Shown here in pieces: positions 4,268 to 45,029 of a stretch of 64,000 nt of DNA. The DNA is from a virus (Duplodnaviria > Caudoviricetes), in IMG/VR virus record IMGVR_UViG_3300025909_000005; one strand, written 5' to 3'. The notes under the pieces are model-generated. The model did not search any database. It was not told the DNA's origin and saw only the letters and a list, made by a program, of their open reading frames with translations. Each line of letters begins with the position of its first letter. Within the stretch, counting starts at the first letter, position 1. Both the position numbers and the translations under genes were made by a program.

Positions 4268-4389
4268 CCACCCTCGCCGTTCTACTGTTCCTCTTCATGC
4301 TCTTCTGGTTCACGCTTCGCGTGCTAGGGATCATCCTCGCCATTCTGCTTGTCATCATCTTCGCTGCGATCTTCGGCGGCCTGTCGTGA
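4264..4389 (+). CDS. small hydrophobic membrane peptide (41 aa)
   Basis: MTTLAVLLFLFMLFWFTLRVLGIILAILLVIIFAAIFGGLS; ATGA overlap. Confidence 0.55.
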   Translation: MTTLAVLLFLFMLFWFTLRVLGIILAILLVIIFAAIFGGLS

Positions 4390-7076: not shown

Positions 7077-7568
7077 ATGACTCAAATCATCTACATCGTG
7101 CGCGGCAGCTGCGGCTCCTACGAGGACTATTCCGAGTGGGACGTGAAGGGCTTCTTCGACCCGGAGAAGGCCAAGCACCGCATGTGGCAAGAGCAGGAGA
7201 ACCTCAAGGAACTCGTGCGACTGACCGAGCTTGGCCGCAACATTTACCAGGAATGGTGCAAGACGCACCCGCGTCCGGTCTGCGCCGACCTGGTAAAGAT
7301 TCCGAACATCCCGCAGGGTGTCAAGAAGAAGGACTGGCCGAAGGACTTCGTGGAACGCCAGAACGCGGCGCGAGAAGAGAACCGAAAGATCGGTGAAGCC
7401 TACACGAAGGAAATGGGAGAGTGGTGGGAAGCTGGCAAGGTCGACGTTCTCGCTGAACTGCGAAAGCACTGCGAGGACGAGGAACTCCTCGCTCGCCTGA
7501 ATCTGCCGCACTGCGGCTATGCCGATCCGGAGACCACCTACGAGATCGTTGAACTGGAAGTAGAATGA
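7077..7568 (+). CDS. hypothetical protein
   Basis: TATAAT and GGGAG upstream; start at MTQIIYIV. Confidence 0.7.
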   Translation: MTQIIYIVRGSCGSYEDYSEWDVKGFFDPEKAKHRMWQEQENLKELVRLTELGRNIYQEWCKTHPRPVCADLVKIPNIPQGVKKKDWPKDFVERQNAAREENRKIGEAYTKEMGEWWEAGKVDVLAELRKHCEDEELLARLNLPHCGYADPETTYEIVELEVE

Positions 7569-8755
7569 AAGAATTCCTGAAGATCACCTACGGCTCGAAG
7601 CTGTACGGAACGAACACGCCCACGTCGGACACCGACGAGAAGGTGGTGTACATTCCTGAGCTCAACGAGTTGCTCCTGTGCAGGACGCCAGGCATCTTCA
7701 AGAGGCGCTTCGATGCTGAAGGGCGACAGCTGAACGACAACGAAAAGATGGCCGACAACGGCGTCGAGACCGAGTACATCCCGCTGCAGCGCTTCGTTCG
7801 CGACTTCGTCGCTGGTCAGACTTACGCGCTGGAGATCGCGCACGGCTACATGTCGAACGTCGACAAGATGACGGTCACCGATGCTGAAAATATGACCCAA
7901 GCGGAGTATGACGAGTTCATCTCCAAAGTGGAGTTCGTCGACGACCTCATCACACTCTTCTCGAACTCCGAGGTCTACTCGATGGTTGGCTTCGCGGCCA
8001 AGCAGACGTTCGACTACGTGAAACGCGGTGAACGACTCAACGAGGCGCGCAAGGTGATGGCTGTTCTGTCAGCAATCCGGCTGGACGTGAGCTTGGAGCT
8101 CGCTGCTCCTACGTCTGTTCAGGTTCCTCCTGAAGGTTCGTGGCAGCTTGAAAGTTCGAAGTTCAAGGTGAGCGACATCGAGACATCGAACCCGAATCCT
8201 GCTCAAGGTCCGAACAAGCGACTTGAGATTCGTCTCGACACGCCGTACCTTGGTGCAGCTGTGCTGGACGCAATCGCGCTGCAGACCGGTCTACCAATTG
8301 GTGAAGCTGTTTCGAACGGCAACCGAAAGCTGCGGACGCTCGAGCTGAACGGTCGGCAGTACCTCGAGACGACCACGATCGATCATGTCACGAGCCAAGT
8401 GGCGAAGTTGATCCAGCAGTATGGTGATCGGTCGACGGATGCGGCAGAAAAGGACGTCGACTACAAGTCGCTGTCTCACGCTGTACGCGTCTACGAACAG
8501 GCAATCGAACTGCTCGATACCCGTCGGATCAAGTTCCCCCGGCCGAACGCTGACTTCCTGCTCGATATCAAGCAGGGTTCGATCAGCCTTGAGACCGTGA
8601 AGGAGCTGCTGTCATCTCTCGACGCAGAGGTGAAGGAAGCCATCGCGACTTCAAAGCTGCCTGCGCGAACGCCCGCTCTAGAGGCTGAAGCTGACAAGTG
8701 GATGCTGGAACAGCTCCAGAAGATCTACAAGACGCACCGTCTCAGCGCGGAGTGA
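7565..8755 (+). CDS. DNA polymerase beta-superfamily nucleotidyltransferase
   Basis: YGSKLYGTNTPTSDTD (GS...DxD) and C-terminal KSLSHAVR helix. Confidence 0.8.
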   Translation: MKEFLKITYGSKLYGTNTPTSDTDEKVVYIPELNELLLCRTPGIFKRRFDAEGRQLNDNEKMADNGVETEYIPLQRFVRDFVAGQTYALEIAHGYMSNVDKMTVTDAENMTQAEYDEFISKVEFVDDLITLFSNSEVYSMVGFAAKQTFDYVKRGERLNEARKVMAVLSAIRLDVSLELAAPTSVQVPPEGSWQLESSKFKVSDIETSNPNPAQGPNKRLEIRLDTPYLGAAVLDAIALQTGLPIGEAVSNGNRKLRTLELNGRQYLETTTIDHVTSQVAKLIQQYGDRSTDAAEKDVDYKSLSHAVRVYEQAIELLDTRRIKFPRPNADFLLDIKQGSISLETVKELLSSLDAEVKEAIATSKLPARTPALEAEADKWMLEQLQKIYKTHRLSAE

Positions 8756-11599: not shown

Positions 11600-11980
11600 A
11601 TGAACTGGCCGCTCATCGGAGCCGGCCTTTCTCTCACAGTTGGCGCCATCGGTATTGGCGCCATCTTGTGGGATGCGAGGCGAACTCGTAGGACAGCTCG
11701 GGACCTGCGAGTAGCGAGCATCAAGCGCATCCAAGCGGACGTTGACGAGTATGTCAAGTCAATTGCTCTGTTGGACGCTCAGCTCGAGAAGTTTCAGAGG
11801 GTCGTAGACGCCTGCGTTGGTGAACGCCCCATGAAGAAGATCAAGCTTCTCGCTGACCTCGAAGGGATCACGATCGCGATCGACAAGTGTCGCGAGGCCT
11901 ACGAGAGACGAATGTTCGACCTCATCCTTGCAAAGGAAATGCTCGACTTGATCGACAACCCGCCCACCGAGGTCCGATGA
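11600..11980 (+). CDS. membrane-anchored coiled-coil protein
   Basis: N-terminal TM helix. Confidence 0.65.
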   Translation: MNWPLIGAGLSLTVGAIGIGAILWDARRTRRTARDLRVASIKRIQADVDEYVKSIALLDAQLEKFQRVVDACVGERPMKKIKLLADLEGITIAIDKCREAYERRMFDLILAKEMLDLIDNPPTEVR

Positions 11981-12279
11981 ACGTCATCGAGGTTGGTGCC
12001 ATATGGATTGGGGCGATGGCGATCCTCGGCCCGCTGAGCGACTTGCAGATGCGGCGCAGCAGCAAGCGCTACATCAAGCGAGATTTACGCATCTGGCACC
12101 AAGCTAGGCTTGAAGATGCGAATGCCCGTGGGAAGATCATCTATGCCCTTCAGGAACGAGCTAAAGGCGAGACGAAAATGAAGCGCTTGAAGATCGAACA
12201 CGATTTGCAGGTTCTCTCCCTGAAGCAATCGATCACGATGAGTCAGATCAAATCGCTTAAAAGTGATTTACGCAAGTAG
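11977..12279 (+). CDS. membrane-anchored hypothetical protein
   Basis: ATGA overlap; ends in TAG. Confidence 0.6.
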   Translation: MNVIEVGAIWIGAMAILGPLSDLQMRRSSKRYIKRDLRIWHQARLEDANARGKIIYALQERAKGETKMKRLKIEHDLQVLSLKQSITMSQIKSLKSDLRK

Positions 12280-12318
12280 CGCATCGGTGTATAATGGAAC
12301 CATCAACACGGAGTCCCA

Positions 12319-13629
12319 ATGAATTTTGCTGAAGTCATCGCAGCCTGTGAGAACTCCACGGGTGGCGGCTCGAAGGCTGCCATCAAGGAACACCTGGCGA
12401 AGCTGGATGCACCGAGCCGGCGGCTCGCGTGGTACGCCCAGAACCCCTACGTCACCTTCTACGTGAAGAAGTTCGACAAGCCGTTCACGTATGCCGAGCA
12501 GGACCCCGAGTCGCTCGACATGTTCTTCGCACTGCTCGATCGTCTCTCGAAGCGTGAGATCACCGGCAACGCAGCCCGCGAAGCCGTTCGCGATGCGCTC
12601 GGCACGTTCACGCAGAAGACCGCCGAGTTCATCGAGCGCGTCATCGACAAGGACCTCAAGGGTGGCTTCAGCGCCGACACCTACAACAAGGTGTGGCCGA
12701 CCGACCCCGTTCCCAGCTGGGAAGAGCAGCTCGCCGAGAAGTGCGAGGAGGTCGAAGACTTCGAGAAGTACGTCACCTTTCCGTGCTGGGCGGACATCAA
12801 GTACGACGGCACCCGCCAGTTCGCGTTCGTTCGCAAGGGCCAGCCGGTCGAGTACCGCGCTCGTGGTGGCAAACCATCAGACCACCTGAACGGCCTGTTC
12901 GACGAGGACCTCCTCGCTGTTCGAGAGCAGCTCGACTACGACTTCATCGTGGACGGCGAAACGCTGTCGGCCGAGTTCGCCGGCGCGATGAACGCCAAGG
13001 GCAGCAAGAACGTGGATGCGAAGAAGAGCCTGATCTTCCGCGCCTTCTACATCATGCCGATCGCCCACTGGATCGAGCAGTCGACCACCATCACGAACGA
13101 TGAAGCCCGCGAGTTCATCGCACGCATGTTCAAGGACACCAAGACGGTTCGTCCGACGGTCGGCCGCATGGTCTCCGACTACAACGACATGATGGCCTTC
13201 TGCAACCAGGTCATCGACGACGAGACGAAGTCGAAGGCCGAGCGTGAAGGTCTGATCCTCAAGGACGGCTCGGCCGTCTACGAGTGGAAGCGGTCCTACA
13301 CGTGGGTGAAGGTCAAGCGCTTCTACGACGTTGATGCACGCATCGTCGGCTTTTACCCTGGCCGCGCCAAGAGCAGGCTCGAGAACACCGTCGGCGGGGT
13401 CAACTGCGTGGCCTTCCTCGAAGGCGGTGAACGCGTCGAGTTCAACGTCGGCTCCGGCTTCAGCGACGCGCAACGCGCCGACATGAAGGCCAACCCCGAC
13501 AAGTGGCTCAAGGGCACCCATGTCATCTCGTACCAGGAGATCACGAAGGCCAAGGGCAAGGAGCTTCGCTCCCTCCGCTTCTGCACGCTGAAGCAGGCCT
13601 TCCGCGAAGACAAGCTGGTCGAAATCTAA
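12319..13629 (+). CDS. ATP-dependent DNA ligase
   Basis: KYDG adenylation motif, DGE, EGLILK, KVK, C-terminal OB fold (VGSGFSD). Confidence 0.92.
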   Translation: MNFAEVIAACENSTGGGSKAAIKEHLAKLDAPSRRLAWYAQNPYVTFYVKKFDKPFTYAEQDPESLDMFFALLDRLSKREITGNAAREAVRDALGTFTQKTAEFIERVIDKDLKGGFSADTYNKVWPTDPVPSWEEQLAEKCEEVEDFEKYVTFPCWADIKYDGTRQFAFVRKGQPVEYRARGGKPSDHLNGLFDEDLLAVREQLDYDFIVDGETLSAEFAGAMNAKGSKNVDAKKSLIFRAFYIMPIAHWIEQSTTITNDEAREFIARMFKDTKTVRPTVGRMVSDYNDMMAFCNQVIDDETKSKAEREGLILKDGSAVYEWKRSYTWVKVKRFYDVDARIVGFYPGRAKSRLENTVGGVNCVAFLEGGERVEFNVGSGFSDAQRADMKANPDKWLKGTHVISYQEITKAKGKELRSLRFCTLKQAFREDKLVEI

Positions 13630-14780: not shown

Positions 14781-15632
14781 ATGGACAATATGAAGCCGCG
14801 TTACATTAGAGTCGTTAGCGACCTCCACCTCGAACAGTACTCGGGCAACCGCCCTGAGTTCAATCTGAAGACGTTTATTCCCGAGGATCCTCGCGATGCC
14901 GAGTCAGTTCTCGTGTTGGCTGGTGACATCGACTCTCACCCGGAAACGCTGTACCCGTTTCTTCAAGTTGCACCTACGCGGTTCATGCATGCGATTTATG
15001 TGCCTGGAAACCATGAGTTCTACGGTCACGACATGGATGAGTGGGCAAAGAACCTTCAAGCGCTGGCCGATGCGTACGCCTTTCCAAAGCTGAGTCTCTC
15101 GACGCTGGGTGTTGGCGAGCTGAAGCTAGAGAACGTCCGCTTCATCTTCACCACGTTGTGGGGAGATGGTGGCAAGTCACAATATGAACAGCTGATGGTC
15201 GGAAAGTACCTGCGTGACTTCTCCGTGATTCGTCGCAGTGGGCGTGGCTTCAAGGTGCCCGACATGATCGAGCTGCACAAGCAGCAGCGCGCAGAAGTAG
15301 AGCGTTTGTTGGGCGAACCGTTCGATGGCGTGAATGTCGTCGTCTCGCACCACATGCCCTCGTACCGCTTGTGTCATCCGCGCTTTGGCACGGATGCCAA
15401 TGGCGGTTTCGCGTCGAACATGGACCTGTTCCTGTCGCATGATACCGCGCCGCACATCTGGATTCATGGCCATACGCATGATTCCATCGACACCCGTCTA
15501 TGGAAGACCCGCGTCGTCTGCAACCCATCGGGTTACTACTTTGAGAACGATGCACGCTACAAGAACTTCAAGCCCAGGTTTCTTGACCTAGAGAACCTTA
15601 ATGAGGATCGTGAGGCGCAAGTCGATGGCTGA
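14781..15632 (+). CDS. calcineurin-like metallophosphoesterase
   Basis: SDLHLE, AGDI, PGNHEFY, SHHMPS and HGHTH motifs. Confidence 0.9.
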   Translation: MDNMKPRYIRVVSDLHLEQYSGNRPEFNLKTFIPEDPRDAESVLVLAGDIDSHPETLYPFLQVAPTRFMHAIYVPGNHEFYGHDMDEWAKNLQALADAYAFPKLSLSTLGVGELKLENVRFIFTTLWGDGGKSQYEQLMVGKYLRDFSVIRRSGRGFKVPDMIELHKQQRAEVERLLGEPFDGVNVVVSHHMPSYRLCHPRFGTDANGGFASNMDLFLSHDTAPHIWIHGHTHDSIDTRLWKTRVVCNPSGYYFENDARYKNFKPRFLDLENLNEDREAQVDG

Positions 15633-18756: not shown

Positions 18757-20154
18757 ATGACAGAAGAAATCATCATCGTGGATGACGGCACAGCTGTGGC
18801 CGAGCGCATCAGGGAACTCATCGCTGAAGCAGTGGCAGACGGCCGCAAGCTCGTCACTGTTCGTACCATCGACGCGATCAACGACATCCCCGGTGCCGAC
18901 CTCATCAAGGTCGCACAGATCGAGGGCTGGCAGGTCGTCGTGAAGGCCGGCGAGTTCAACGTCGGAGACCCGTGCGTCTTCTTCGAGGTCGACGCGTTCC
19001 TGCAGCTGAGTGACCCGCGCTTCGCGTTCCTTGAGAAGAACGCCATCACGTGGCACGGTATTCGTGGTGCTCGCCTCAAGACCATTCGCCTGCGCAAGCA
19101 GCTGTCGCAGGGTCTCGCGCTGCCGCTGAAGGACTTCCCAGAGATCATCGCTGAGTGGGACCGTCTCTGCAACGAGCCGGGCGTGAAGGCCGCCAACACG
19201 ACCATTCGTGACGTGAACTTCACTGGCGTCGTTGGCGTCATGAAGTGGGAGAAGATCATGAGCGCCCAGCTGGCTGGTCAGGCTCGTGGCAACTTCCCAT
19301 CCTTCATCCAGAAGTCGGACCAGGAGCGTGCGCAGAACATGGGCGACCGCATCTTCAGCTACGACGAGCAGCTGCGTCCAGTCGACATCAGCGGCATCTC
19401 GATGGAGCAGCTGACCCTCGCCTTCGACGCGAAGCGTATCATCGAGAAGAACGGCCAGTACTTCACGGTCGTGCCGCCGCGTGCCTCACGTGAGACGCGC
19501 TACGACATCACCATCAAGCTCGATGGCAGCTCCATGACGATGTACTGCCGCCTGCCGGACAGCGAAGGTGACATGCTCATCAAGGATGCCGAAGGCAACG
19601 TCATCGGCAACGGCGTGCAGTCAGGCGTCTGCTCTCGCAACCTCGACCTCAAGATCGAGGGCAACGAAGGCAACTCGTTCGTCGACATGGCGCAGAGCGG
19701 CATGCTCGATCAGCTGGTCGAGTACTGCAAGCGGACTGGTCGCAGCCTCGCGCTGCAGGGCGAGCTCATGGGTCCTGGCATTCAGGGCAACCGTGAAGGC
19801 CTGACTGAGAACAAGTTCTTCCTCTACAACATCTTCAACATCAACACGGGCGTCTACCTCGCTCCTGAAGAACGTTACAAGGTGCTGGCAGAGATCAACG
19901 CCCTCGCAGATGAAGGCATCGACCCGCGCTTCAAGTACATCGCGCACGTGCCGGTTCTCTTCCCGACCGAGCGGTTCGGGGATAACGGCATGAGCCTTGC
20001 TGAACTTGGCATCACCGACATGGCATCGCTGCTGAAGTTCGCCGAAGGCAAGTCACTGCACAACGCCGTGCGTGAAGGTCTCGTCTTCAAGGCGTACGAC
20101 GGCACGCACCAGTTCAAGGTGATCAGCAACCTCTACCTCGAACAGGAGAAGTAA
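18757..20154 (+). CDS. RNA ligase (Rnl2/DRB0094-like) with N-terminal OB-like domain
   Basis: KLDGSS motif I, LQGELMG, REGLVFK, FKVISNLYL. Confidence 0.85.
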   Translation: MTEEIIIVDDGTAVAERIRELIAEAVADGRKLVTVRTIDAINDIPGADLIKVAQIEGWQVVVKAGEFNVGDPCVFFEVDAFLQLSDPRFAFLEKNAITWHGIRGARLKTIRLRKQLSQGLALPLKDFPEIIAEWDRLCNEPGVKAANTTIRDVNFTGVVGVMKWEKIMSAQLAGQARGNFPSFIQKSDQERAQNMGDRIFSYDEQLRPVDISGISMEQLTLAFDAKRIIEKNGQYFTVVPPRASRETRYDITIKLDGSSMTMYCRLPDSEGDMLIKDAEGNVIGNGVQSGVCSRNLDLKIEGNEGNSFVDMAQSGMLDQLVEYCKRTGRSLALQGELMGPGIQGNREGLTENKFFLYNIFNINTGVYLAPEERYKVLAEINALADEGIDPRFKYIAHVPVLFPTERFGDNGMSLAELGITDMASLLKFAEGKSLHNAVREGLVFKAYDGTHQFKVISNLYLEQEK

Positions 20155-30067: not shown

Positions 30068-31192
30068 ATGGCATCGAAAGTTCTGACCGTCTACATCGGT
30101 CGTTTCCAACCACTTCACAACGGACATGTCCACGTTCTGACGAATGCGCTTCGCACGTCGGACCACACGCTGGTGCTCGTCGGCAGCTCGTTCCGTTCCC
30201 GCACGATCAAGAACCCCTTCACGTTCGACGAACGTAAGGAAGTGCTCATGGCCTGGCACGACGACTCGGAGCTCGACAAGAAGAGCCTGACCGTTCTGCC
30301 ACTGCGTGACCAGCCCTACTCAAACTCCAAGTGGATCGAGTCGGTGCAGAAGACGGTCCACAACTTCATGATCGAGAAGCATCTCGACCCCCGCACCACT
30401 GAAGTTCGCCTCACCGGTTCCGACCGTGACGAGTCGACCTGGTACCTGCAGGCCTTCCCGCAGTGGAAGCTGGCGCTCTGCGCTCCAGTTCCTGCCGGCC
30501 GCGACCTCTCAGCCACCAACCTCCGTCATGAGCTGTTCGGCGCCATGCTTGGCACGGCCATCAAGGACGACACCCCTCGCATCACGCAGTTCTTCATCGA
30601 GAAGTTCCGATTCGGCGAGGAGTTCGCGCTCCTCAAGGCCGAGTACGACTTCATCGAGAAGTACAAGAAGGCCTGGAAGGCAGCACCCTACGCACCCTAC
30701 TTCCTGACCGTCGACGGCGTCGTGATCCAATCCGGCCACGTGCTGGTCGTCCGCCGCGGCGCCCTCCCTGGCAAGGGCCTGCTCGCTCTGCCTGGTGGCT
30801 TCCTCGATCAGAACGAGCGCCTCGCCGACGGCGTGGTTCGTGAACTCATCGAGGAAACGGGTCTGCGTCTGGCTGACGGCAAGAACGCCGAACGCATCAC
30901 GAAGTCGATGCTGCAGGGCGCCATCAAGGCGAAGGAAATCTTCGACGATCCGAATCGCTCGCTGCGTGGTCGCACCGTGACGACTGCCTACCTCATCCGC
31001 CTCGATGACACCAAGCCGCTTCCGAAGGTGAAGGGCCAGTACGCACCGCTCCACGAGACCGGCGGCAAGCTCGTCGTCGAAACGGCTGACGCGTTCTGGA
31101 TGCCGATCGCCGACGCGCTGCGCGACAGCTCGGTGTGGTTCGAGGACCACTACTACATTCTCGAGACGATGCTCGGCTTTGCGAAGGACTGA
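30068..31192 (+). CDS. bifunctional NMN adenylyltransferase / NUDIX (ADP-ribose) hydrolase (NadM-Nudix, NatV-like)
   Basis: GRFQPLHNGH (HxGH), LSATNLR, ALPGGF....E......RELIEETG, WFEDH. Confidence 0.92.
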   Translation: MASKVLTVYIGRFQPLHNGHVHVLTNALRTSDHTLVLVGSSFRSRTIKNPFTFDERKEVLMAWHDDSELDKKSLTVLPLRDQPYSNSKWIESVQKTVHNFMIEKHLDPRTTEVRLTGSDRDESTWYLQAFPQWKLALCAPVPAGRDLSATNLRHELFGAMLGTAIKDDTPRITQFFIEKFRFGEEFALLKAEYDFIEKYKKAWKAAPYAPYFLTVDGVVIQSGHVLVVRRGALPGKGLLALPGGFLDQNERLADGVVRELIEETGLRLADGKNAERITKSMLQGAIKAKEIFDDPNRSLRGRTVTTAYLIRLDDTKPLPKVKGQYAPLHETGGKLVVETADAFWMPIADALRDSSVWFEDHYYILETMLGFAKD

Positions 31193-33524: not shown

Positions 33525-33579
33525 TGTACGTGGGTCCTACTCTGTGATACAATGGAGTAGGACCCACAATGGAGCAAGC

Positions 33580-34887
33580 ATGGCAGGATCACGAATCGCA
33601 CCAGTACTCGCAGTGATTGGAGCTGGTTACGGTGACGAAGGCAAGGGCCTCTTCACCGACTACCTTGCCCGCAAGCACTCGAGATTCCAAGGCACGAAGG
33701 TTCCTCTCGTCATGAGAGGAAACGGTGGTGCACAAGCTGGCCACACTGTCGTCGATGGCACGAGGCGTCACGTCTTTGGCCACATCGGCTCAGGCACGAT
33801 GGCTGGTGCTCGTACCTACCTCGCTGAGAACTTCATCGTCAACCCCATGGCCTTCGCTCCTGAACTGGAGAAGGTGAAGGCCCTTGGCATGGACCCGACC
33901 GTCTATGCCCACTCCAACTGCCGTGTCACAACGATCTTCGACATGGCGCTGAATTCCCTGGCCGAGCTCTTCCGAGGTCGCGCCCTTCACGGCTCATGCG
34001 GCTACGGCATCAACGAGACCGTGACTCGCAACGAGGCGGGCTACTACCTCACGATGGCTGACATCCGTGCAGGCACCGCAGTTCTCGCAACCAAGCTCGA
34101 GGACATCCTTCGCGAGTACGTACCGACCCGGCTCTATGCCATCGGCTACCAGGAATGGGACCGCGACTCGGCCACCCCGCAAGTCAGAGCGCAGGCGGAC
34201 GTCTACCTCAAGACCGTCATGGTGCAACAGGACGATCGTGCGGCCCACTGCAGCGCCCTCGCATCGAGGATGCAGAAGGACGTTCACTCGATCCACCTCT
34301 ACGACCCGAAGTCGTTCACGTGGTCAGGCGAGCCGATCATCTACGAAGGTGCACAAGGCCTGCTGCTCGACGAGTACCACGGTACGTTCCCGCACGTGAC
34401 CCGCTCCGTGACAGGCGTCGCCTCCGCTGTTCGTGCTGCCGCTGAAGCTGGACGCACTCAAGTTCAGCCGTACTACATCACGCGCTGCTACACGACCCGC
34501 CACGGTGCGGGTCCCCTGTACAAGGAAGGCGAGATCATCACCGATGGCGTCCGCTCGCTTCCTGATGAAACGAACATGCCGAACCAGCACCAGGGCACGC
34601 TGCGCTTCGCACCGCTGAATCTCGGCCACCTTCGGAACGCAATCGAGCGAGACATGGAACGTGCACGTCACGTCGGCCAGGTCTTCAACATCGAGGTCCT
34701 TCAGCCGAAGCTTGTCGTCACCCACCTCGACCAGCTCGGCCGCAAGGTGCAGTTTGCTGGATGGAGCTACCTTGTCGAGAGTGAAGCTGCTGCGAAAGCA
34801 ATCGGCAACTTCCTCGAGGTGTCCGTCTCGCACGTTTCCTACGGACCTGAAGCAAAGGATGTACGAGAGTTCACCTCTGAGCTATAA
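33580..34887 (+). CDS. purA: divergent adenylosuccinate synthetase (PurA-like)
   Basis: GAGYGDEGKG, NGGAQAGHT, EGAQGLLLD, PHVTRS, TRHGAGP, THLD. Confidence 0.8.
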   Translation: MAGSRIAPVLAVIGAGYGDEGKGLFTDYLARKHSRFQGTKVPLVMRGNGGAQAGHTVVDGTRRHVFGHIGSGTMAGARTYLAENFIVNPMAFAPELEKVKALGMDPTVYAHSNCRVTTIFDMALNSLAELFRGRALHGSCGYGINETVTRNEAGYYLTMADIRAGTAVLATKLEDILREYVPTRLYAIGYQEWDRDSATPQVRAQADVYLKTVMVQQDDRAAHCSALASRMQKDVHSIHLYDPKSFTWSGEPIIYEGAQGLLLDEYHGTFPHVTRSVTGVASAVRAAAEAGRTQVQPYYITRCYTTRHGAGPLYKEGEIITDGVRSLPDETNMPNQHQGTLRFAPLNLGHLRNAIERDMERARHVGQVFNIEVLQPKLVVTHLDQLGRKVQFAGWSYLVESEAAAKAIGNFLEVSVSHVSYGPEAKDVREFTSEL

Positions 34888-34946: not shown

Positions 34947-36419
34947 ATGTCTGAAAAACTCGTTCCCTACACCCCGAAGCGCCTCACGTACAACCCGCTG
35001 ATGCGCACGGACAGCTACAAGTTCTCGCACGCCTTCTCGTACCCGAGCAACGCCACTGGCATGTTCTCGTACATCGAGGCCCGCACCGGCGGCCAGGACA
35101 TCATCGTCCCTTTCGGCCTGCAGATCTGGCTGAACGAACACCTCTCCATTCCCATCACCGCAGAGAACATCGACGAGGCCGAGCTCTTCGCAGCTGCCCA
35201 CGGTGAACCCTTCAGCCGCGCGGCCTGGGAGAAGGTCCTCAACAAGTATCACGGCTACATGCCCGTGACCATCCGCGCCGTTCCCGAAGGCACGCCGGTT
35301 CCGAGCGGCAACGCCCTCGTGACCATCCAGTGCGAGGACGAAGAGCTCGTCGGCGAAGTCAACAGGATTCTCGTCTTCTGGATCGCCTCGTACCTCGAGA
35401 CGCAGATGCTGCGCGCCTACTGGTACCCGACCACTATCGCCACCCTCGACCGTGCGACGAAGCTGCAGATCAAGCGCTTCTACGAAATCGCCGGTGCCGA
35501 CCTCAACTTCCTGCCCTTCTCGCTGCACGACTTCGGCGGCCGCGGCGTTTCGTCCGGCGAGACCGCTGCCATCGGCGGTGCCGCCCACCTGCCGTCCTTC
35601 ATGGGCTCGGACACGGTCGAAGGCGTTCGCTACGCCAACTTCTACTACGACGAGGCCATGTCGGCCTTCTCCGTCCGTGCGACGGAGCACTCGGTCGCCT
35701 GCTCGTTCGGCCTGTCGGATGAAGACGAGATCGCGTACATCGCCCACCAGCTGAAGGTCTTCGAAGGCAATGGCAACATCATCTCGATGGTCGGCGACTC
35801 GAAGAGCATCAAGCGCTTCGCAAAGCACCTGTGCACGACCTTCCGTGACCAGATCATGGACCTCCATGAGCGCCTCGGCATGAAGATCGTCTGCCGCCCG
35901 GACTCCGGCGATCCGCTCGAGATCATTCCGATGCTGCTGAAGATGTTCGCTGACGCGTTCCCGACCACGAAGACCAGCGCCGGCTACATCAAGCTCTACC
36001 CCGGCATCGGCATCCTGCAGGGCGACGGCGTCGATCGCATGACGATCCTCACCATCCTCGGCAACATCATGGCCATGAACTTCTCGCCGGACAACATCGT
36101 CTTCGGTTCCGGTGGCGGCCTGCTGCAGAAGGTCAACCGCGACACGTTCAAGTTCGCGATGAAGGCCTCTGCGATCAAGGTCGACGGCAAGTGGAAGGGC
36201 ATCGTCAAGGACCCGGAAACCGACCCCGGCAAGAAGTCGAAGGAAGGCATCCTGACCCTCGCGACGAACGGCCTCGGTGACTACCTCACGGTGCGCCTCG
36301 ACAACTCCGAGAACCCGTACCCGCGCGGCTATCACGATGCCATGGTCACGGTCTACGACAAGGGCCAGTTCTACAACCATACGACGCTGGCTGAAGTCCG
36401 CGCCCGCTGCGCGGTCTAA
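34947..36419 (+). CDS. nadV: nicotinamide phosphoribosyltransferase (NAMPT/NadV)
   Basis: TDSYKFSH, LHDFGGRG, ATEHS, RPDSGDP, QGDG, FGSGGGLLQKVNRDT, KDP.TDPGKKSK.G. Confidence 0.93.
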   Translation: MSEKLVPYTPKRLTYNPLMRTDSYKFSHAFSYPSNATGMFSYIEARTGGQDIIVPFGLQIWLNEHLSIPITAENIDEAELFAAAHGEPFSRAAWEKVLNKYHGYMPVTIRAVPEGTPVPSGNALVTIQCEDEELVGEVNRILVFWIASYLETQMLRAYWYPTTIATLDRATKLQIKRFYEIAGADLNFLPFSLHDFGGRGVSSGETAAIGGAAHLPSFMGSDTVEGVRYANFYYDEAMSAFSVRATEHSVACSFGLSDEDEIAYIAHQLKVFEGNGNIISMVGDSKSIKRFAKHLCTTFRDQIMDLHERLGMKIVCRPDSGDPLEIIPMLLKMFADAFPTTKTSAGYIKLYPGIGILQGDGVDRMTILTILGNIMAMNFSPDNIVFGSGGGLLQKVNRDTFKFAMKASAIKVDGKWKGIVKDPETDPGKKSKEGILTLATNGLGDYLTVRLDNSENPYPRGYHDAMVTVYDKGQFYNHTTLAEVRARCAV

Positions 36420-39576: not shown

Positions 39577-40221
39577 ATGCCAAACGCAGTTGTAAAGAGC
39601 TACGCCAAGAAGACTGGAAAGTCGCCTGAGCACATCGAAGGATGGTGGAAGGAGGCCGAGAAGGAAGCCAAGAAGAAGTTCCCAAAGAAGGGCCCTCACT
39701 ACTGGGCGTACGTGAACGGCATCGTGAAGCGCCGTGGTGGCATCAAGGAGGTCATCGGCTTCCGTGACTTCGTTGACCTGCTCTCAGAAGAGGATGGCGG
39801 TGAGAAGGAGTCAGCGCTCTCCAAGATGTCCAAGGAACACGGTCCTGTCCTGGACAGGATCGAGAAGATCAAGGACCTTGGGCGCACCTTCGACAAGGCT
39901 CTCAAGGCTGACGGAGATGAGAAGGCGAAGGGCAACTACGCGCACTGGCTGAAGACGACCGACAAGTACCGAGTCGCCTACTTCACCGACACCGATCTCG
40001 ACATTGAAACCGTCCTCGTCTTCCGCGGCCACAAGTGCTTCGGCCTGGCATCGAAGAACGACAGCGACGCAATCATCGACTTCAAGTTCGTGCCAATGGA
40101 ACGCAGCGACTGGCAGGCGATCGAGGACTTCAGCTTGGACAACCTTGACTCCTCGGCTACAATCACTGATGAGAACCTCGACCACTATGTTGAGATGATT
40201 CTCCAGGCCACTCATAAATAA
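39577..40221 (+). CDS. hypothetical protein
   Basis: SD AAGGA; basic N-terminal half. Confidence 0.7.
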   Translation: MPNAVVKSYAKKTGKSPEHIEGWWKEAEKEAKKKFPKKGPHYWAYVNGIVKRRGGIKEVIGFRDFVDLLSEEDGGEKESALSKMSKEHGPVLDRIEKIKDLGRTFDKALKADGDEKAKGNYAHWLKTTDKYRVAYFTDTDLDIETVLVFRGHKCFGLASKNDSDAIIDFKFVPMERSDWQAIEDFSLDNLDSSATITDENLDHYVEMILQATHK

Positions 40222-40260
40222 ACCAGAGCACAGGTTGAGGCCTGTGCTATAATAGAAACA

Positions 40261-40560
40261 TACTGCAGCAATGCAGTTGTATTGTCGTAATTCGGCATGA
40301 CTTGAAGGATTTGAGACGCGGGTTCGATTCCCGCCGGCTCCACCACAAATCATCTTAGCAAGAACCTTACGCCAACGTTGTGGCAAGGAAAGCAGCAAGG
40401 GTGATTTGTCATGGGGCCGACCAGGCTATCGATCAGGTTACGGAGATGATTGACGCGACACGTCGTAGTGACGTTAAAAACTCGTCTAGTAAACGCAAAC
40501 GACTCCAACTACGCGATCGCCGCTTAATAACCGGCCCGCGCGCGGCATAAGCCACCGTGT
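40261..40560 (+). ncRNA. ssrA: circularly permuted (two-piece) tmRNA: acceptor piece ending CCA at 40345, intervening segment, coding piece from G40413; tag ANDSNYAIAA at 40495-40524
   Basis: GACGCGGGTTCGATTCCCGCCGGCTCCACCA precedes GGGGCCGA; 7-bp acceptor stem with G3.U70; P2 pairing TCAGGTTA/TGACTTGA; TATAAT at 40248; outer ends approximate. Confidence 0.88.
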
Positions 40561-40574
40561 AAAAGAATGAGCTA

Positions 40575-40615
40575 GGACGGACCCGAGGAGCAATCTTTGG
40601 GTCCGTCTGCCTTTC
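40575..40615 (+). terminator. terminator-like hairpin after tmRNA
   Basis: GGACGGACCC...GGGTCCGTCT hairpin. Confidence 0.5.
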
Positions 40616-41274: not shown

Positions 41275-41346
41275 GCCTCGGTAGCTCAGTGGTAGAGCGG
41301 ATGCCTCTAAAACGTCGGGTCGTGGGTTCGATTCCCACCCGGGGCA
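41275..41346 (+). tRNA. amber suppressor tRNA, anticodon CUA (copy 1; CCA not encoded)
   Basis: GCCTCGG/CCGGGGC acceptor; anticodon loop CT-CTA-AA; canonical D and T arms; C-A mismatch at 31:39. Confidence 0.85.
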
Positions 41347-41355
41347 CAGATAAGG

Positions 41356-41568
41356 ATGACCATGGGACGTAGACTTTCCCTGCATGAAATGAATGCCATC
41401 AGGCATGAGGACGATGTTCGCAACTCGCAGATCAAGCGAGGCGAATGGAAGCCGAAGACAAACAACAACTATCACTGCGTGTGTGGTTGTGGTGCGTTCG
41501 CATGCGTGTTCGTGAGCTCAATTCCGCAGACGGTCCTGCCCATGGACGAACGATCAAATGTCTCTTAG
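41356..41568 (+). CDS. small Cys-containing protein between the two suppressor tRNAs
   Basis: SD AAGGA; HCVCGCG; stop TAG lies inside the downstream tRNA. Confidence 0.55.
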   Translation: MTMGRRLSLHEMNAIRHEDDVRNSQIKRGEWKPKTNNNYHCVCGCGAFACVFVSSIPQTVLPMDERSNVS

Positions 41569-41634
41569 CTCAATGGGTAGAGCGACGGTCTCTAAAACCG
41601 TATGTTCCGGGTTCGAGCCCCGGAGGGACGGCCA
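41559..41634 (+). tRNA. amber suppressor tRNA, anticodon CUA (copy 2)
   Basis: perfect anticodon stem ACGGT/ACCGT, loop CT-CTA-AA; weak T1.G72, G73, CCA encoded. Confidence 0.9.
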
Positions 41635-42678: not shown

Positions 42679-42989
42679 GCACACTCTCAAGGATCATCGC
42701 AGCTGCTGATGCAGACCCTGAGGGGTACGAGTCCGCAACGACGCCGCTCTACAACCGGCTTCTTAAGGCGTTAGGCAAAGTGGAGATTCGTTCGATTTTA
42801 ACGCCTCAGCTTTCAGATCAGCACATCGGTCGTGGCTGGCGTCAACTGGCAGATGTACTGCTGATTGCGCCACCGCGAACAGGCAAGTCTGCGATCCGCA
42901 ACGAGCTGATCGTGCTGCGCAGCAAAGAGCGACCTGCGTCTCCGAATGTTCATTTCGACCCACAGTGGTACAATAAATACATCGACTAA
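42675..42989 (+). CDS. DADPxGY-family paralog 3
   Basis: MSTLSRIIAAADADPEGY. Confidence 0.7.
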   Translation: MSTLSRIIAAADADPEGYESATTPLYNRLLKALGKVEIRSILTPQLSDQHIGRGWRQLADVLLIAPPRTGKSAIRNELIVLRSKERPASPNVHFDPQWYNKYID

Positions 42990-43141
42990 CAAGTTGTAGT
43001 TCCGATCAACAACCGACGAGGCACCCGAAATGTAAGTCCGACCCTGAGTTTCATCACACAGGCTAACGATTTTGAGTTTCGAGTTTCATGGGAACCTTCT
43101 CCATGGTAAAAAGGTTCCCCAACTTCCCAAGGAAGACCATC

Positions 43142-43498
43142 ATGCAATCGTAGATCCGCGAAGACGCCAAGACCTATCTGTACACCATCTCTCGCCGCGA
43201 CATCCCTCTCGCGCAACAAGCTGTGCAAGCCGGCCACGCCGCCCTTGAACACGCTTACCTCTACGGCCGTCCGGCCGACCATCACCCCTCCTACATTCAC
43301 CTGACGATTCGAGACAAGGAACGGCTCGAGAAGCAACGGCGTGCGCTCCAAGAAGCTGGCATTCCGACGGCCGAGTTCCACGAACCGTACAAGGACTGGG
43401 GTCTCACCGCCATTTCCTGCCTCCTCACCGAGGAACAACGTCACCACCTGAAGGGGCTCCAGCTGTGGCGCCTCCCCACCCAAGGAGAAGAAGCATGA
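43142..43498 (+). CDS. Pth2-like peptidyl-tRNA hydrolase with in-frame TAG at codon 4 (43151-43153); needs amber readthrough
   Basis: SD AAGGA then ATG CAA TCG TAG ATC...; YTISRRDIPLAQQAVQAGHAA...F.EP...LTAI matches the Pth2 fold, with its first strand upstream of the ORF-track start at 43223. Confidence 0.75.
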
Positions 43499-43899
43499 AC
43501 TACACCATCATTGTCCATGAAGAAGCCCGCCATGGTTACGACCGCTGCGGCGACGGCTGGAACGAACCTGGCACCTTCGAGGTGTTCTGCACCTCTGATC
43601 AAACCGAGTTCGTGAAGAAGTGGGCTGAGTTCGACCTGAAGCAGCCATCCGGTTGCTGGGACGACTTCCAGATCCTGTACGATGGCGTGCCGACGGAATT
43701 CGATGACGCGCACTACGAGCTGGAGCGACTCAAGGACATCGAGTACGCCGCGCTGAAGAAGCAGGCCGAGGCAGACAAGCTGGAGGCGAAGCGTCGCGCC
43801 GAGGAAGAAGCCAGGGTGAAGGCGGCTCGTGCCGTCGAAGCTCAACGACAAGCAGACCTCGCGCAGCTCGAGGCCCTCAAAAAGAAGCTGGGAGTCTAA
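43495..43899 (+). CDS. hypothetical protein with coiled-coil C-terminus
   Basis: ATGA overlap, SD GGAG. Confidence 0.7.
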   Translation: MNYTIIVHEEARHGYDRCGDGWNEPGTFEVFCTSDQTEFVKKWAEFDLKQPSGCWDDFQILYDGVPTEFDDAHYELERLKDIEYAALKKQAEADKLEAKRRAEEEARVKAARAVEAQRQADLAQLEALKKKLGV

Positions 43900-44459: not shown

Positions 44460-45029
44460 ATGACGTAGGTTTTCTCCCCCAAGCTGCAGGCTCTTCGTGA
44501 GAAGATGGCCGCCTGCAACCAGACCCAAGGCCAGACCATTCTCCAGCACGGCGAGTCCGTGGCCGAGTGGTACAAGGACCTGATTGGTGCACGCACACGT
44601 GAGTGGCGCCTGCCTGACTGGTTCGATCCCGCCCTCTTCGAGCTCTGCCCAGATGTGGGGACGATGGAGCGCTACCACATCTACCATGATTGTGGTAAGC
44701 CGTACTGCCGTACGGTTGACGAAGAAGGTCGTCAACACTTCCCTGACCATGCCCGTATCAGCGCCTCCATCTGGCGCGTGACCGGTGGCGACGCGGCTGT
44801 TGCTCGTCTCATCGAACACGACATGGACATGCACACCCTCAAGCCGGCAGATGCCGACACCTACCTGCACCTGGACATTGCTCCAGCTCTGCTTCTCACC
44901 GCCCTTGCTGAACTGCACTCCAACGCCGACATGTTCGGCGGGATCGAGAGCACGTCCTTCAAGATCAAGTTCAAGAACCTCAACAAGCTCGGCAACCGCC
45001 TCATCAACCGCATCAAGGAGATCGCATAA
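44460..45029 (+). CDS. HD-domain phosphohydrolase with in-frame TAG at codon 3 (44466-44468); needs amber readthrough
   Basis: SD AAGGA then ATG ACG TAG GTT TTC...in frame with ORF 44505; H...YHDCGKP...HFPDHA...IEHDM HD motifs. Confidence 0.72.

Follow-up and report, generated by a model that had tools for sequence, protein, structure and literature searches.

The stretch of viral DNA analyzed here, 64,000 nucleotides of the IMG/VR record IMGVR_UViG_3300025909_000005 (Duplodnaviria; Caudoviricetes) and hereafter called the window, contains a gene at position 43142 that raises the question of how a protein can be made from a reading frame that is stopped at its fourth codon. The gene begins with ATG (43142-44), CAA, and TCG, followed by the amber codon TAG (43151-53), after which the same frame stays open until the TGA at 43496-98. 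The first start codon that translation table 11 offers in this frame is the GTG at 43223, which has no Shine-Dalgarno (SD) sequence and would give a product of 91 amino acids. By contrast, an SD sequence is present before the ATG across the relatives of this gene. The gene encodes a protein with the fold of Pth2, and we propose, with a probability of about 0.8, that it and a second gene at 44460, for an HD-domain protein, are held under a translational lock that only a suppressor transfer RNA (tRNA) opens; judged by their folds, both products would act on the 3′ ends of tRNAs.

TAG 43151 was shared by eight other metagenome contigs that were 99% identical, so that it is not a sequencing or assembly error. 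An identical Pth2-like protein was also present on a contig of 376,608 bp, and a megablast search with the locus found zero matches among 50,697 phage records.

The segment between the TAG and GTG 43223 proved to be real coding sequence. A search returned 137 homologues, with whose conserved N-terminus, KTYLYxISRRDIPLAQQA, this segment aligned; full-length homologues start with M(x0-8)KTYLYxISRRDIPLAQQA, which corresponds to window residues 6-23, after the TAG. Over the 16 codons that separate the stop from the GTG position, 60 non-redundant copies with an early in-frame stop (gated copies) had summed column entropies of 5.5, 1.7, and 18.7 at codon positions 1, 2, and 3, respectively. The pairwise codon differences after the stop in gated copies comprised 11170 synonymous versus 4291 non-synonymous ones. 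The variation falls mostly on third positions, which is the pattern of a translated region under purifying selection.

The initial annotation had taken the same segment for the first strand and the beginning of the first helix of a Pth2 fold, and structure prediction bore this out. The AlphaFold model of the 114-residue protein, built with the homologue alignment, had a predicted local distance difference test score (pLDDT) of 93, with strand 1 at residues 7-14 and helix 1 at residues 19-37; according to the model, the 91-residue form starting at GTG 43223 lacks strand 1 and the first third of helix 1. In a Foldseek search of the PDB, 13 of the 14 top matches were Pth2 chains (among them 1wn2, 2zv3, 3erj, 1q7s of Bit1, 1rlk, and 1xty), the other being the DUF2000 protein 2gax. 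Template modeling (TM) scores were 0.64-0.75 for the 12 matches with E<=1e-3, and the probability was 1.0 for all 14. The top 30 structural matches among Swiss-Prot models were all Pth2 or PTRHD1. The fold of the window protein, the alpha/beta Pth2 fold in which a four-stranded sheet packs on helices, is established by these comparisons.

The family-level profiles agreed with the fold. The Pth2-like family comprised 1547 representative clusters, and a broad profile of 67 diverse members (A3) matched the Pth2 chains 24bt_A (4.9e-6) and 2zv3 (1.6e-4) in the PDB; a narrow family profile (A2) gave zero matches there. Individually, 34 of the 67 diverse members matched PF01981 at E <= 0.01, and identity to known Pth2 proteins was 12-23%. 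The window protein itself scored 12.9 bits against PF01981 (E = 0.13), below the gathering cut-off of 23, so that its assignment rests on the fold and the family-level profiles, not on its own Pfam score. The 91-residue form gave zero matches to Pfam, the weak PF01981 match being lost as well.

In Pth2, the catalytic residues are the Lys of the GK motif and an Asp, as reported for the Sulfolobus solfataricus enzyme. In the profile alignment, the GK loop of Pth2 was shortened in the phage family: the GK residues fell in an insertion relative to the family, which has Q21/Q22 there instead. At the catalytic acid position stood E77, Q25 and H28 were invariant, and the Q-x-x-H-A helix motif was kept. 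The earlier naming of the product as a Pth2-like peptidyl-tRNA hydrolase thus stood as regards the fold, with qualifications on the Pfam threshold and on the catalytic Lys, which is apparently absent. To judge from the model, the window protein is of the Pth2 fold and is probably a tRNA-ester hydrolase, though no proven Pth2.

The early stop was conserved well beyond the window. We compared 68 non-redundant Pth2-like copies from IMG/VR viral and metagenome loci, with amino acid identities of 56-84%. In 57 of these, a start codon and 0-7 further sense codons preceded a TAG in frame with the conserved core; two were gated by TGA (L021 and L029), and nine were open or ambiguous. When the IMG/VR loci were taken alone, 26 of 31 close homologues had an SD sequence, ATG, 0-5 sense codons, and an in-frame TAG. 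Examples of gated N-termini are MQS-stop, ML-stop, MHKL-stop, MKA-stop, M-stop, and MKGAKV-stop. The stop was in frame with the downstream open reading frame (ORF) in every gated copy, and the TAG always lay within the first 2-9 codons. The base 3′ of the stop was A in 48 and G in 12 of the 60 gated copies, with a pyrimidine in none; a 3′ purine reportedly favors amber suppression, a finding attributed to Bossi in 1983. No ATG occurred between the stop and the conserved core of gated copies, though L038 has one directly after the stop, and AAC, GTT, and ACA, which are not start codons, were frequent directly after the stop.

Five of the open copies formed one paralogous clade in the protein tree. 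In two loci, L032 (L032-L034, 9317 and 10001) and L093, two Pth2-like copies lay together, one TAG-gated with a long ORF (217 open codons) and the other an ungated paralogue (MKNYLY...) from the ungated clade.

The lock was also found in cultured phages. A TAG gate, always followed by A, was present in Ralstonia RsoM2USA, Serratia BF, Acinetobacter ME3, Xanthomonas XbC2, Cronobacter GAP32, and Salmonella Arash, and the copies of K64-1 and S-CBWM1 were ungated. A tRNA with the anticodon CUA, tRNA(CUA), lay 0.5-3 kb from the gate in ME3, GAP32, and Arash, and 13 kb away in RsoM2USA. The Pth2-like gene is unannotated in RsoM2USA (L059), Serratia BF (L060), several Erwinia and Yersinia phages, and K64-1 (L133). 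In Salmonella Arash (L135), a tRNA annotated as tRNA-Phe (locus 4307-4378) has the anticodon CTA according to ARAGORN.

The tRNA that would open the lock is encoded nearby. Two tRNA(CUA) genes lie about 1.5 kb upstream of the Pth2-like gene, both with a canonical cloverleaf and a 7-nt anticodon loop CU-CUA-AA (ARAGORN; Rfam RF00005, gathering score 29). Among the relatives, 42 TAG-gated loci carried tRNA(CUA), as a rule 0.1-2.8 kb upstream and in many cases directly behind a permuted transfer-messenger RNA (tmRNA), and none of them carried tRNA(UCA). In most related loci, the permuted tmRNA was found 1-4 kb upstream of the suppressor tRNAs. The TGA-gated locus L029, whose gene begins MES-TGA-VTQKHYLY, had two tRNA(UCA) genes and no CUA, and the TGA-gated L021 had one tRNA(UCA) and no CUA, so that the stop matched the suppressor anticodon in all 44 gated loci that held a suppressor. 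In the protein tree, L029 grouped with the TAG/CUA locus L027 as its sister (support 100/93), and L021 was placed elsewhere; the separate positions imply at least two changes of the stop, each with a matching tRNA. The conservation of the lock and the anticodon match are established. They also agree with the view of the initial annotation that the first strand sits upstream of any usable canonical start: readthrough of TAG 43151 was the only arrangement that fitted the comparative data, in which the stop is conserved, always in frame, and matches the anticodon of a linked suppressor tRNA.

Distant ungated homologues (28-39% identity) kept the linkage to the suppressor, 15 of 17 loci having a tRNA(CUA) no more than about 1 kb downstream and 12 having it within about 350 nt. 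In the IMG/VR loci L040-L056, the ungated Pth2-like gene stands directly upstream of tRNA(CUA), and some of these phages have TAG inside genes. From its arrangement, the ungated gene with tRNA(CUA) looks like a conserved two-gene cassette of phages that probably use code 15.

The second locked gene, 44460, encodes a product that matched phrog_14850 (2.6e-60) and, weakly, an HD domain, the profile match over the H..HD..H..D region having E = 1.3e-3. Its relatives showed an early TAG in about 44 loci and a TGA in L029. The model of the HD protein had a pLDDT of 96.5, and its best structural matches were the C-terminal half of class II tRNA nucleotidyltransferases (3wfo-3wfs, TMq 0.58-0.68), the closest structural relative being the HD region of the Aquifex aeolicus A-adding enzyme in these entries. 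Unlike these enzymes, the phage HD protein stands alone, with 186 amino acids and no nucleotidyltransferase head. A split CCA-adding enzyme was considered, and neither a tblastn search of the ME3 nucleotidyltransferase head against the window nor Pfam scans of 38 window proteins for a PolyA_pol head found anything. A Pth2-like domain was fused instead in some phages: XacN1 ORF364, Xoo-sp13_327, and L053 each encode the HD and Pth2-like parts as a single chain downstream of one TAG, with N-termini such as MK-stop-TIKAMK... (XacN1 ORF364) and MKK-stop-NFNLMK.... On the short contig L126 182, the TAA of the Pth2-like gene is followed immediately, without a change of frame, by the HD gene (..PHT-stop-VLSTTLDDL); this may reflect readthrough that fuses the two, or simply a GTG start of the usual kind.

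These data led us to infer readthrough, the enzymatic activities, and the purpose of the lock as follows. Ribosomes would start at AUG 43142 and reach the UAG, where release factor 1, if it wins, would release only fMet-Gln-Ser, and where decoding by the phage tRNA(CUA) at 41275 or 41559 would let the whole protein be made. The output would thereby track the activity of the charged suppressor tRNA relative to the release factor. With the stop placed ahead of strand 1, in a variable N-terminal tail, the inserted amino acid should be irrelevant to folding. Gene 44460 would come under the same kind of control; as their models suggest, the two products are a Pth2-type ester hydrolase and a phosphohydrolase akin to the HD portion of CCA/A-adding enzymes. 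The favored purposes are that enzymes for the clean-up of tRNAs and ribosomes would be dose-matched to the level of suppression or that they would be timed by the accumulation of the tRNA; the adjacent tmRNA fits with clean-up enzymes scaled to the readthrough level. A self-limiting loop would be a third option, and such a homeostatic loop might form because a Pth2-type esterase could discharge the suppressor itself.

Tentatively, and as a possibility that we consider clearly less likely than its opposite, the suppressor tRNAs of these standard-code jumbo phages might act mainly as a regulatory key or sensor and not as a decoding aid. The two tRNA-end enzymes would then scale with the ratio of charged suppressor to release factor, sensing the tRNA pool and the state of translation and adjusting clean-up, possibly in a self-limiting loop. 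On this view, the close linkage of ungated Pth2-like genes to tRNA(CUA) in truly recoded phages would make the Pth2-like family a general and so far undescribed part of the code-change machinery of phages.

Several other explanations of the early TAG have to be weighed against suppression. The ATG-CAA-TCG-TAG could be a separate mini-ORF, with the Pth2-like protein made without a suppressor by termination-reinitiation or from the noncanonical start ATC 43154, and very short ORFs are known to serve for coupling when they lie beside a downstream start. The codons after the stop lend this idea some weight, being ATT or ATC, which are rare noncanonical starts, in 32 of the 60 copies and ATG in L038, and some reinitiation in gated copies may take place. 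As the source of the protein, however, it is unlikely. Reinitiation needs no in-frame stop, yet every gated copy has the stop in frame, and in the other 28 copies the next codon is AAC, GTT, ACA, ACC, AGC, GTC, GTA, or GTG, mostly no start codons. Neither the TAG in 57 copies with its switch to TGA exactly where tRNA(UCA) is found nor the purine at +4 would be explained. A pseudogene created by a nonsense mutation, or a functional 91-residue product from GTG 43223, is very improbable. Public gene calls do give the 91-residue form (P0001 and about 40 others), and the gene is missing from several GenBank annotations, as described above; but about 60 divergent copies have kept the stop, the codons between it and the GTG are under strong purifying selection, and the short product, whose GTG has no SD sequence, would be a compact single-domain fold missing strand 1 and part of helix 1.

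That the whole genome uses an alternative code (code 15), in which TAG 43151 is an ordinary sense codon, seems a little less probable than the mini-ORF. Some gene callers read the homologues with TAG=Q, the more distant homologues occur in phages with TAG inside genes, and TAG stops are rare in the window: only two plausible genes end in TAG (285-914 and 11887-12294), each with an in-frame TAA 5-7 codons further on. Such back-up TAA codons would limit the damage from amber suppression, and with two cases they could be chance. Against this code, no other plausible gene in the window has an in-frame TAG, and the combination of SD sequence, ATG, TAG, and long ORF occurs there only at 43151 and 44466. 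The TAG is kept in the first 2-9 codons across 56-84% identity, with no drift to CAG or CAA or to other places, and a scan of the RsoM2USA genome, which is complete, found no coherent gates besides the two homologous early ones. XacN1 was described as a standard-code phage with two CUA suppressors and 18 amber stops, readthrough of which adds no similarity, and the targets were left unidentified (PMC5852040). A third recurrent gated family was found in none of the relatives' flanks. Of the traits of code 15, therefore, a cognate suppressor tRNA is present, and in-frame stops in many genes are absent from the window and from RsoM2USA. Glutamine as the replaced residue was suggested by the Q at the gate in homologues (MQSQIQ..., MKSQIS...) and was dropped, since P0029, the sole such protein examined, can be translated only if TAG is read as Q; the Q probably reflects the convention of the gene caller and is uninformative on the inserted residue.

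Besides the ATT and ATC codons already mentioned, several observations weigh against a suppressor-dependent lock. The window covers 64 kb of a genome of about 377 kb, and TAG-containing genes may exist in the other approximately 310 kb. Upstream flanks of at least 3 kb were available for 40 gated loci, and in about 6 of these (e.g., L014 and L017) the fetched DNA showed no cognate tRNA; the record behind L017, which is 66% complete, was also searched by pattern for a CUA tRNA, with a negative result. The catalytic Lys of Pth2 appears, from the alignment, to have been lost by a deletion in this family, so that peptidyl-tRNA hydrolase activity is not assured. With regard to the inserted amino acid, the global similarity of the suppressors to 323 canonical phage tRNAs was at most 0.78 and pointed to no single isotype; tRNA 1 may be Phe-like in its body, and tRNA 2 has a U1.G72 pair and G73, as do substrates of GlnRS. 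In L029, TGA was still the commonest stop, ending 8 of 15 long plus-strand ORFs. Since TGA is not depleted there, the suppressor would be weak, timed, or tolerated, and the locked genes may be expressed only at a low level; suppression is probably not strong. Stop-codon usage was accordingly rejected as an independent test: with TGA undepleted in L029 and TAG rare everywhere, it carries no information on function and argues only against strong suppression.

The coordinates of the features discussed are collected in Table 1.

Table 1. Positions in the window of the locked genes, the suppressor tRNA genes, and associated elements
Feature	Position	Strand	Details
Pth2-fold gene	43142..43498	+	118 codons including the in-frame TAG (codon 4)
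Shine-Dalgarno sequence AAGGAAG	43129..43135	+	6 nt 5′ of ATG 43142
In-frame TAG (proposed lock)	43151..43153	+	next base A
Codons of β-strand 1 of the Pth2 fold	43172..43195	+	between the TAG and GTG 43223; AlphaFold model
HD-domain gene, proposed second lock	44460..45029	+	SD sequence TAAGGA, ATG ACT TAG (44466-68) GTT
tRNA with anticodon CUA, putative amber suppressor 1	41275..41347	+	G1-C72, A73, no encoded CCA; Rfam tRNA 62.4 bits
tRNA with anticodon CUA, putative amber suppressor 2	41559..41634	+	U1.G72, G73, encoded CCA; Rfam tRNA 61.9 bits
Two-piece (permuted) tmRNA	40181..40611	+	RF01850 91.9 bits, tag ANDSNYAIAA
TAAATAC, copy of a promoter-like motif	42974..42980	+	probably the start of a 5′ leader of about 155 nt
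9-bp hairpin GGGAACCTT/AAGGTTCCC in the leader	43090..43119	+	present, not conserved

A structured leader of 160 nt had been postulated for the Pth2-like gene, and this was not upheld: the folding of 42990-43165 gave z = -0.36, with 67 of 200 shuffles folding equally well, and no Rfam family matched the leader. The 9-bp hairpin, put forward as an extra regulatory element, does exist, and neither its position nor its sequence was conserved in the relatives, so that the suggested role is not supported. The motif TAAATA(C/G) occurred 17 times in the window versus 1.8 expected, 15 times on the plus strand (e.g., at 912, 6524, 30011, 41133, 42974, 48562, 61268, and 62871). Most sites lie just 5′ of genes and several between inverted repeats, and one copy is found about 140 nt 5′ of suppressor tRNA 1. 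Judged by its sequence and distribution, it looks like a phage promoter, and it resembles the T4 late promoter. Among 64 relatives, 36 had the motif in the 200 nt before the gate, the background rate being 0.046 per 200 nt, and its distance from the stop was for the most part 37-50 nt; the leader of about 155 nt and its hairpin are thus peculiar to the lineage of the window.

The next gene (43495-43899; 134 amino acids, no family) overlaps the TGA of the Pth2-like gene with its ATG (ATGA) and has a strong SD sequence of its own, AAGGAG, so that the amber lock may or may not reach it through translational coupling. All plausible genes of the window are on the plus strand, the guanine-cytosine content is about 0.57, and the window carries 25 canonical tRNAs, the two-piece tmRNA, and the two tRNA(CUA) genes; it looks like part of a jumbo phage, and the phage is from soil. 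The tmRNA scored above the gathering threshold of the betaproteobacterial model RF01850, which is a hint on the host. RNA-repair-type genes are found at 7565-8755, 12319-13629, 14781-15632, and 18757-20154, the set comprising a RlaP-like Pol-beta nucleotidyltransferase, an ATP-dependent ligase, a calcineurin-like phosphoesterase, and an RNA ligase with a PHA02142 OB domain, and they fit a theme of tRNA repair around the locked genes. Genes for NAD salvage and related functions are located at 30068-31192, 33544-34887, and 34947-36419 (an NMNAT-Nudix fusion, an adenylosuccinate-synthetase-like gene, and NAMPT).

The proposed lock shares features with several known systems. With Pth2 (PF01981; 1wn2, 2zv3, 3erj, 1xty, and human Bit1 1q7s), the phage family has in common the fold, the Q-x-x-H-A helix motif, and an acidic residue at the site of the catalytic Asp, and it differs in being viral and suppressor-tRNA-linked, in its shorter GK loop, and in that the Lys is not conserved. 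The Streptomyces bldA gene, whose tRNA-Leu(UAA) controls TTA-containing genes, is likewise a dedicated tRNA that serves as the key to a handful of genes with its rare codon and provides translational timing; however, it reads a rare sense codon, whereas the lock codon of this viral system is a stop, so that the tRNA would compete with a release factor. In recoded phages, suppressor tRNAs accompany the reassignment of TAG or TGA, which has been proposed as a timing device (Borges et al., bioRxiv 10.1101/2021.08.26.457843). There, too, a phage tRNA reads the stop, and translation of genes with in-frame stops has to await an active suppressor, but the stops are spread throughout many genes, mostly structural and lysis genes. 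Here, by contrast, the code otherwise reads as standard, and two small genes for putative tRNA-end enzymes have one stop each, in a non-conserved tail, conserved across distant phages. Engineered feed-forward gates, in which an early amber codon and an inducible suppressor tRNA lock a target gene (PMC7969014), follow the same layout, whereas the phage lock is natural and conserved.

A further comparison is with the orphan suppressors of XacN1 and RsoM2USA, which have the anticodon CUA as here; both are jumbo phages that belong broadly to this group and encode large sets of tRNAs. No specific suppressor target is given in the RsoM2USA paper (PMC8504454), and a literature search returned no paper linking Pth2-like genes to phage suppressors. 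Unlike in the XacN1 and RsoM2USA papers, candidate targets appear here as 5′-proximal TAGs, namely in XacN1 ORF364, in the Pth2-like gene of RsoM2USA, and in its HD gene before the annotated start of RsoM2USA_91.

The presence of the lock in cultivable phages (GAP32, Serratia BF, ME3, RsoM2USA, XacN1, Xoo-sp13, and Arash) makes the proposal directly testable, and for annotation the finding means that the locked genes are truncated or absent in several GenBank records. If suppression does open these genes, orphan suppressor tRNAs, as found in XacN1, RsoM2USA, and other jumbo phages with the standard code, would gain a concrete natural target, and the lock would be a minimal natural case of gene control by stop-codon suppression. 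A large uncharacterized Pth2-like family would thereby be tied to the biology of suppressor tRNAs, truly recoded phages included.

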